A stretch of 4,849 bases of DNA from a virus (lineage: Duplodnaviria > Heunggongvirae > Uroviricota > Caudoviricetes): the IMG/VR virus record IMGVR_UViG_2645728078_000019; one strand, written 5' to 3'. The position numbers and the translations under genes were made by a program. Below are positions 3,617 through 4,159 of the stretch, piece after piece. The notes beneath the pieces are model-generated. The model had not been told where the DNA came from and made no database searches. It was given only the letters and a program-made list of their open reading frames with translations. Each line of letters begins with the position of its first letter. Within the stretch, counting starts at the first letter, position 1.

Positions 3617-4159
3617 ATGAAGCTCATTCTTGCGACGCGTAATTATTATCTGGAATATGGTTTGCGTTTGTTACTGAAAGGATGCCGTGTAATTCTGGCT
3701 CAAGAATTTTTTATGCCGGAAAATCGCAGGGTTATTCTGGATAGTAAAGAATCCTGGTTAATAATCTGTGATAGTCAGTTGGGCCATTTAATGCGCAGCA
3801 TGTTTCAGGGACGCCGTTTTATTCAGCTGGATCTGGAAGCGTTGAAAGGGGGACATGATATACATAATGCTGTGCGTAACAGATTGTGGACCTGGAACAA
3901 AAAAGCACGGGCACTGACGATGTCAGAGATGGTGGTGATGTTTGGATATATCTACCGTCAGTTGCGTCCGTCCCATCTCGCCAGTGAGATGAGGGTAAAC
4001 ATAAAAACAGTTAACACTTTCCTGTATTCAGGGCTGGCGAAAAATGGGCTCAAAAGAAGTAGTGTAAGGTTGCTGGCAATTTCTGAGAACAAGCGAATAG
4101 GGCATTATTCCGGAGCAGGACAGGGTAATCACGCAGGTGGTGATACTGGATGCGGATAA
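3617..4159 (+). CDS. LuxR/GerE-family helix-turn-helix transcriptional regulator, GadE/YhiF-like size and layout (possibly related to the prophage-encoded Psr regulators of EHEC)
   Basis: 180 aa. RBS-like AGGGAAG at 3603-3609, 7 nt before the ATG. Residues about 101-156 (LTMSEMVVMFGYIYRQLRPSHLASEMRVNIKTVNTFLYSGLAKNGLKRSSVRLLAI) fit the LuxR-type HTH pattern seen in GerE (LT.RE.EV...IA..L.IS.KTV..H..N...KLG). The N-terminal ~100 aa look like a degenerate receiver-like domain. The last ~20 codons are read from repeat copy 2 in a shifted frame. The Psr link is from memory and unverified. Confidence 0.6.
   Translation: MKLILATRNYYLEYGLRLLLKGCRVILAQEFFMPENRRVILDSKESWLIICDSQLGHLMRSMFQGRRFIQLDLEALKGGHDIHNAVRNRLWTWNKKARALTMSEMVVMFGYIYRQLRPSHLASEMRVNIKTVNTFLYSGLAKNGLKRSSVRLLAISENKRIGHYSGAGQGNHAGGDTGCG

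Follow-up and report, generated by a model that had tools for sequence, protein, structure and literature searches.

The stretch of DNA analyzed here (4,849 nucleotides, IMG/VR virus record IMGVR_UViG_2645728078_000019; hereafter, the window) covers the right-hand end of a lambdoid prophage and carries, between tail-fiber genes and an effector gene of the nleG family, an open reading frame (ORF) of 180 codons at positions 3617 to 4159. In our reading, which we consider probable, this ORF is an intact and selectively maintained cargo gene (moron) of the prophage, coding for an orphan regulator-like protein of the ORF-156 family in which a receiver-like domain precedes a divergent helix-turn-helix (HTH) domain of the LuxR/GerE type, and its end is fused to a fragment of a Phage_fiber_C gene (hereafter, fiber-C). 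An initial annotation, made from the letters alone, had described a regulator gene with an ATG start in DNA of lower G+C content (GC) just upstream of nleG. This layout is borne out by the ORF itself, by the Pfam scans, and by the GC, which is 0.42 to 0.48 over the regulator ORF and nleG versus 0.55 to 0.70 in the upstream tail-fiber gene.

A conserved gene of the ORF-156 family

The ORF is a real gene under purifying selection. Over codons 1 to 155, the pairwise ratio of nonsynonymous to synonymous substitution rates (dN/dS) against five relatives ranges from 0.14 to 0.25, and the substitutions that separate it from the gene of one of them, P0003, fall on the three codon positions as 27, 21, and 50. 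In this last comparison dS reaches 0.66 with a dN/dS of 0.25, and the fused form of the gene has stayed an open frame of 193 codons. Furthermore, the 180-aa frame is intact, with 0 to 3 nucleotide differences, in all six copies sampled (AMSHJX01, enteropathogenic Escherichia coli [EPEC] E2348/69, phage 2B8, O55:H7 CB9615, an O121 strain, and EC12), at least 1000 contigs carry exactly this protein, and its sequence is unchanged in four phages that convert to Shiga toxin (Stx) 1a production. Among 5426 complete E. coli genomes, 115 carry the regulator core at ≥99% identity and 76 carry more distant relatives.

At the protein level, residues 1 to 155 match positions 1 to 155 of the 156 positions of phrog_6585 (E = 1e-91), a family annotated as of unknown function. 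Clustered at 90% identity, the homologues fall into 39 groups, every one of them from E. coli and labeled hypothetical. An exhaustive hidden Markov model (HMM) search of 1.84 billion representative proteins returned the 37 clusters of the family and nothing that would link it to LuxR families. When the family alignment was used to scan the GTDB species-representative genomes, no relatives turned up, which fits an accessory family present almost only in E. coli. An exception is one full-length member of 156 aa (P0113, in the cluster of P0052), which is recorded from Salmonella enterica serovar Poona and shows that the family extends slightly beyond E. coli.

The name ORF-156 reportedly comes from Sandt & Hill 2000. 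The ORF-156A, -C, -D, and -E proteins of phages P-EibA, P-EibC, P-EibD, and P-EibE (AF151091 and AF151674-6) share 60 to 68% amino acid identity with residues 1 to 154 of the window protein, and their genes occupy the same site, past the tail-fiber genes in the right end of lambdoid prophages. They are 156 to 157 aa long and end just past the core, whereas the window protein bears an extension of 25 codons read from a fiber-C fragment. Moreover, the ORF-156 genes lie directly downstream of eib, which codes for a YadA-like adhesin, while the window gene follows the fiber-C gene and precedes effector cargo of the type III secretion system (T3SS). The former arrangement is the prevalent one: most family genes sit at the prophage end immediately after a YadA/Eib-type adhesin gene (loci L003, L007, L008, L009, L013 to L016, and L022), whereas the upstream neighbor of the window gene is the fiber-C gene and not an adhesin gene.

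A small ORF of 42 to 60 aa follows the regulator gene in the Eib-type loci, at times overlapping the stop codon of the latter (L007, 3043 to 3225; L003, 5492 to 5665; L009, 3108 to 3236), and has no counterpart in the window; ORF-60 of these loci matches phrog_9340, of unknown function. Distant members, with 36 to 37% identity, come from records filed as plasmids, where they are annotated as LuxR family (L018, 5001 to 6116; L017, 1777 to 2253); one of the two directly precedes another gene, a canonical one of the GerE type (GerE, E = 3.7e-10), and the other lies near the fimbrial genes papI/papB/papA.

Domain architecture of the protein

Residues from about 100 to 155 adopt a divergent HTH fold of the LuxR/GerE type, as we conclude from the family profile, the distant homologues, and two AlphaFold models. 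The family profile A4 matched GerE (1fse) with an E value of 4.2e-4 and VraR with one of 5e-3, and 13 of its 15 best PDB matches are of the LuxR/NarL type. In particular, the triplet K130-T131-V132, invariant in the close family, is in register with the KTV of GerE and falls in the predicted recognition helix. Among distant members, the fragment P0069 reaches 28.4 bits against Pfam GerE (cutoff, 23.5), P0044 reaches 22.2, and the L018 homologue reaches 22.0; moreover, the full-length plasmid homologues carry their LuxR-family annotation. Of 30 close homologues, one matches GerE (E = 0.056), and the NCBIfam scan of the ORF gave a single match, to EvgA (E = 0.14, residues 90 to 159). P0045 scores better on Sigma70_r4_2 than on GerE; the HTH families GerE and Sigma70_r4_2 share the sigma-4-like fold.

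The structural models agree with this assignment. The AlphaFold model of the full protein has a predicted local distance difference test score (pLDDT) of 73, and its top 45 Foldseek matches are all response regulators of the NarL/FixJ type. The domain model of residues 95 to 161 (pLDDT 80.8) contains four helices (8 to 19, 24 to 31, 35 to 48, and 56 to 65) and superposes on the C-terminal domain of DosR, RcsB, EvgA, LiaR, and GerE with template modeling (TM) scores of 0.62 to 0.73, with sigma region 4 close behind. The protein may bind DNA in a sequence-specific manner.

The N-terminal 90 or so residues appear similar to a truncated receiver domain without an acidic pocket. When the invariant columns are mapped on the predicted secondary structure, D52, itself invariant, would stand at the end of predicted strand 3, T7-R8-N9 would take the positions of the acidic pair, and neither strand 5 nor the Lys would be present; the Pfam scans gave no Response_reg match. 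Since the acidic Mg2+ pocket, strand 5, and the Lys are missing, the protein is probably not phosphorylated.

The fused 3' end

A direct repeat of 127 nucleotides (3256 to 3382 versus 4101 to 4227), 88% identical and far beyond chance, connects the end of the regulator gene with the 89-aa fiber-C gene. Copy A is in frame within the latter, whereas copy B begins at the second base of codon 162 of the ORF; therefore, the ORF reads copy B in the +1 frame, ending with GHYSGAGQGNHAGGDTGCG and a stop codon, and its last 19 codons are fiber derived. This agrees with the earlier proposal that the final 20 or so codons come from fiber sequence read out of frame, but their source is the small fiber-C gene and not the main fiber. 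In fact, homology with fiber-C at the protein level extends back to 4083 (fiber-C residue 38; 80% identity over 46 aa, tblastn frame 3 versus frame 2 of the ORF), and therefore the true junction lies at about codon 155/156, which coincides with the end of similarity among all family members. It follows that codons 156 to 180 (25 codons) read copy B in the +1 frame, the stop codon (4157 to 4159) lying inside it. The identity of copy B to copy A is 50% at 4081 to 4100, 97% at 4101 to 4164, and 79% at 4165 to 4227, and the Prokaryotic Genome Annotation Pipeline (PGAP) labels the equivalent of 4101 to 4220 a fiber-C pseudogene fragment. The DNA similarity to the P0003 and P0004 loci stops at window positions 4080 to 4081.

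Most homologues end 1 to 5 residues past the junction, after a conserved ...SV(K/R)xLA. Since the family profile has 156 positions, of which the ORF matches 1 to 155, the HTH domain is whole, and what was lost amounts to a few native residues and the stop codon. Thus, the suggestion of the initial annotation that the native C terminus has been replaced holds as far as the fiber-derived tail is concerned but was overstated. The homologues, with which it had proposed to compare this end, have variable tails, and the tail of P0003 is likewise decayed fiber-C.

The P0003 gene, which codes for 193 aa, is also informative about the age of the fusion. Its locus (L010) shows 77.6% DNA identity to the window over 3490 to 4080 (blastn), and its decayed fiber-C fragment, with 41% amino acid identity to fiber-C residues 39 to 82 (E = 6e-6), begins at the codon where the fragment of the window gene also begins and shares its +1 relative frame. 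The fusion is old, because the same junction and frame persist, decayed, in this relative, and a single ancestral junction common to the window and P0003 lineages appears to be the simplest reading of the two sequences. The ancestral gene would have been joined, within about 1 to 5 codons of the stop, to a Phage_fiber_C gene, at a point in the middle of the latter. A recent remodeling of the tail specific to the window was considered and rejected: the same junction is found in E2348/69, phage 2B8, O55:H7, O121, and EC12 and, decayed, in P0003.

The fiber-derived tail is most likely neutral, because it is not conserved and is predicted to be disordered (residues 154 to 180 have a pLDDT below 50 in the full AlphaFold model). 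Because positions 4101 to 4164 are highly identical to resident fiber-C genes, the pattern of identity suggests a later homologous exchange inside the fiber-C fragment, that is, a step of gene conversion, and such exchange is a plausible route for swapping the effector cargo downstream. Fiber-C gene ends seem to recur at the boundaries of cargo modules. The shared out-of-frame junction thus offers a small, clean case in which repeated tail-fiber gene ends mark, and probably mediate, the shuffling of cargo.

Two further observations concern fiber-C sequences. An extra Phage_fiber_C 3' fragment lies just upstream of nleH1-2, beside a degraded integrase gene, in E2348/69 (L002, 8351 to 8422) and in O55:H7 (L019, 6243 to 6314); the former corresponds to fiber-C residues 67 to 89 with 91% identity. 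Within the window, three segments are of the Phage_fiber_C type (2901 to 3086, 3127 to 3393, and 4083 to 4220), the first of which is the C terminus of the main fiber, with about 40% identity to the 89-aa fiber-C gene.

Alternative explanations

Several points weigh against an intact, selectively maintained regulator-like gene. Of the 5426 complete genomes, 251 keep only a deleted remnant of it, so the gene is dispensable, and PGAP treats the locus as pseudogene fragments. The ORF protein taken alone gave no Pfam match at E ≤ 1 and remained below the threshold of GerE (PF00196); the C-terminal LuxR-type HTH predicted by the initial annotation is thus borne out, but through the family profile, transitive matches, and fold evidence and not through a direct Pfam match. 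Every link to LuxR proteins is remote, with E values of about 1e-4 for the profile and of 6e-4 to 0.7 for Foldseek despite the consistency of the matches. Upstream of the ORF, the consensus promoter scan listed no promoter-like site and no convincing sigma-70 match. Finally, a literature search, which did not cover the original ORF-156 description, found no mention of orf-156 and no functional study of any member of the family, and the Eib literature searched contained no discussion of the downstream regulator.

Some of these points would be explained if the ORF were a decaying pseudogene, whose native end was destroyed by the out-of-frame fusion and whose frame survives through the recent spread of one allele. 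The pseudogene fragments of PGAP, the remnants in Sp5-type Stx2 phages, and the failure to detect a promoter would fit this explanation; moreover, the window-type allele is nearly clonal, so selection within it is not measurable. However, the PGAP call looks artifactual, because the coordinates of its fragment match those of a truncated protein. The fragment, labeled "missing C-terminus," covers window positions 3713 to 3862, that is, residues 33 to 82 (L001, 6314 to 6463). In the Stx2 phage Sp5 of strain Sakai (L004, 3845 to 4506), the regulator persists as a remnant with two deletions, equivalent to window positions 3513 to 3677 and 3860 to 3976, and this remnant is annotated as ECs_1230 (63 aa; L004, 4281 to 4469), starting at the equivalent of Met33; sequence of the remnant type matches phrog_2014. 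Judging from these coordinates, an intact gene has apparently been scored against the truncated reference protein ECs_1230. The RefSeq call could mislead later readers, as the remnant apparently serves as the reference and the intact form passes for the "pseudogene." Since all 155 residues of the core are present and constraint on the fused form has continued after the divergence from P0003, where that form is still open, we regard a pseudogene as unlikely.

It is also possible to hypothesize that the protein is an auxiliary partner of RcsB, like RcsA, BglJ, GadE, MatA/EcpR, or DctR, which would form a phosphorylation-independent heterodimer and redirect RcsB, for example, to adhesin or effector genes silenced by H-NS. 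The known RcsB auxiliaries are proteins of the same type, namely, small LuxR proteins of the FixJ/NarL group with noncanonical receiver domains, and are repressed by H-NS; RcsA, BglJ, and MatA/EcpR in particular are LuxR-type orphans from DNA that was acquired horizontally or is silenced by H-NS (PMC5651002). Moreover, RcsB ranks first among the Foldseek matches of the full model and has the highest TM score for the HTH domain, the gene lies in lower-GC DNA, and the weak NCBIfam matches of distant family members are to BglJ and EcpR (E = 3e-4 to 5e-3), although with 19 to 20 bits they are far below the cutoffs of 176 to 300. However, the resemblance is at the level of the fold and is common to every protein of the NarL family.

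GadE (175 aa) and DctR, or YhiF (176 aa), are similar to the window protein in size, as the initial annotation had noticed, and in layout, with a noncanonical N-terminal domain and a C-terminal HTH of the GerE type. Their alignment to profile A4 with hhalign is collinear (4 to 148 versus 3 to 163) but weak (E = 1.7e-3, probability 15%), their single sequences gave no significant match to the close-family profile (E = 0.08 and 0.5), and both belong to the acid fitness island of E. coli, a genomic setting different from that of the window gene. On balance, a partnership with RcsB seems to us improbable.

A true two-component response regulator, phosphorylated at D52 by a host kinase, would account for the invariance of this residue at the phospho-acceptor position and for the receiver-like fold. 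Indeed, the NarL/FixJ response regulators (RcsB, EvgA, DosR, FixJ, VraR, and LiaR) are structurally the best matches for the whole model as well as for the HTH domain. In comparison with them, the window protein is about 40 residues shorter and lacks the acidic pocket, the Thr/Ser, the Lys, and a nearby kinase gene. The receiver of DosR is four-stranded (3C3W structure), as is the model of the window protein. The replacement of the acidic pair by T7/R8/N9, the lack of strand 5 and of the conserved Lys, and the lack of a Response_reg match make this explanation very improbable, and no kinase gene belonging to the element was found in the family loci whose neighbors were examined, btsS in L003 and L013 to L016 being host DNA past the prophage end.

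Lastly, the link drawn by the initial annotation to the Psr regulators, taken here to mean a prophage-encoded repressor of the T3SS acting via GadE/YhiF, is hardly credible and, as a family assignment, refuted: although the niche is the same as that of psrA and psrB and one P0003-type locus adjoins a PerC/Pch-like gene and another an EspG fragment, PsrA and PsrB, about 90% identical to each other and encoded in prophage effector loci of enterohemorrhagic E. coli (EHEC) and EPEC, are of the AraC/XylS type (PMC10877973), whereas the ORF, judged by domain family and not by direct alignment, has no AraC domain and carries a LuxR/sigma-4-type HTH, and no result implies homology. Later readers should therefore take the Psr regulators as AraC-type and not LuxR-type proteins.

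Genomic context, expression, and possible role

The module formed by the regulator gene and the fiber-C fragment is conserved in window-type loci, where similarity stops at about window positions 4300 to 4338, and what follows varies with the prophage: nleG and then nleA, nleA alone, nleH/nleF, nleG and then espJ, or an nleG-like gene and then a WxxxE effector gene. Since the downstream cargo differs among prophages, the regulator is mobile and not a fixed partner of nleG. Accordingly, of the regulator-plus-effector moron pair proposed in the initial annotation, the intact cargo gene stands, while its pairing with nleG is not conserved.

Upstream of the gene, the hairpin at about 3411 to 3444, which a T-run follows, has a folding energy of -21.2 kcal/mol (z = -4.7), and none of 200 shuffled sequences was equally stable; the consensus terminator scan did not list the hairpin (3400 to 3444), which is supported by RNA folding. 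This terminator-like hairpin would close the late/tail operon and separate the tail genes from the ORF, and its position points to the regulator gene as an independent transcription unit. A 44-aa ORF at 3508 to 3642, which overlaps the regulator start and whose P0003 counterpart is called a gene by some pipelines, was rejected as coding, because its substitutions fall on the three codon positions as 12, 13, and 13 and frame-breaking indels occur.

We propose that the regulator gene would be transcribed alone, downstream of the terminator of the tail operon, from poorly defined promoter DNA; its product would dimerize via the receiver-like domain, as NarL/FixJ-type proteins do, and bind DNA with the recognition helix that contains KTV, and it could thereby adjust the expression of the neighboring prophage cargo (Eib adhesins or T3SS effectors), of host regulons, or of both. 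The regulation of the many virulence genes in the cargo regions of EPEC and EHEC prophages is understood only in part, and the hosts of the window-type gene include EPEC E2348/69, O55:H7 and O121 strains, and Stx1a phages. A widespread "hypothetical protein" thus gains a structural class and becomes a testable candidate regulator at the head of exchangeable effector loci.

More speculatively, and with little confidence on our part, the ORF-156/phrog_6585 family might represent an unrecognized class of phage-borne orphan regulators of the FixJ/NarL type, acting as RcsB partners or as independent antisilencers of H-NS-silenced cargo, with fiber-C 3' fragments serving as recombination handles. 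If so, the expression of prophage cargo would be tied to the envelope stress network of the host, and the regulator would be moved in front of new cargo.

Features of the window

The features are collected in Table 1.

Table 1. Positions of genes, domains, and signals in the window
Feature	Position	Strand	Basis or remark
Tail tip protein J, C-terminal part	1-1080		
Lom	1148-1747		
Side tail fiber: phage_tail_N, collagen repeats, Phage_fiber_C domain	1812-3125		
89-aa Phage_fiber_C gene, carrying repeat copy A (3256-3382)	3127-3396	+	PF06820, E = 9.6e-36; phrog_576 tail fiber protein; repeat family D2
Intrinsic-terminator-like hairpin (inner stem 3411-3435), then TTTTTGTTG	3400-3444	+	RNA folding
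Upstream region of the regulator gene, presumed promoter and 5' untranslated region	3490-3616	+	About 78% nucleotide identity with P0003-type loci
Whole regulator ORF, 180 aa, ORF-156/phrog_6585 family	3617-4159	+	ATG start
N-terminal domain, residues 1-93, predicted four-strand alpha/beta receiver-like fold	3617-3895	+	
C-terminal four-helix HTH of LuxR/GerE type (sigma-4-like), residues ~95-155	3899-4081	+	Profile A4, domain model, Foldseek
Partial Phage_fiber_C copy B (fiber-C residues 38-83, with an internal stop and neither start nor end)	4083-4237	+	tblastn
nleG-family T3SS effector gene, variable downstream cargo	4289-4849	+	PF06416, E = 3.5e-45

The Rfam scan of the window gave no match. 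In the side tail fiber, collagen-like Gly-X-Y repeats at 2560 to 2890 give rise to the direct-repeat families D1 and D3, with a GC of up to 0.70. The nleG frame opens with a TTG at 4238, but related genomes have the start annotated at the equivalent of the ATG at 4289; a match resembling a promoter, at 4263 to 4290, ends one base inside this ATG codon.
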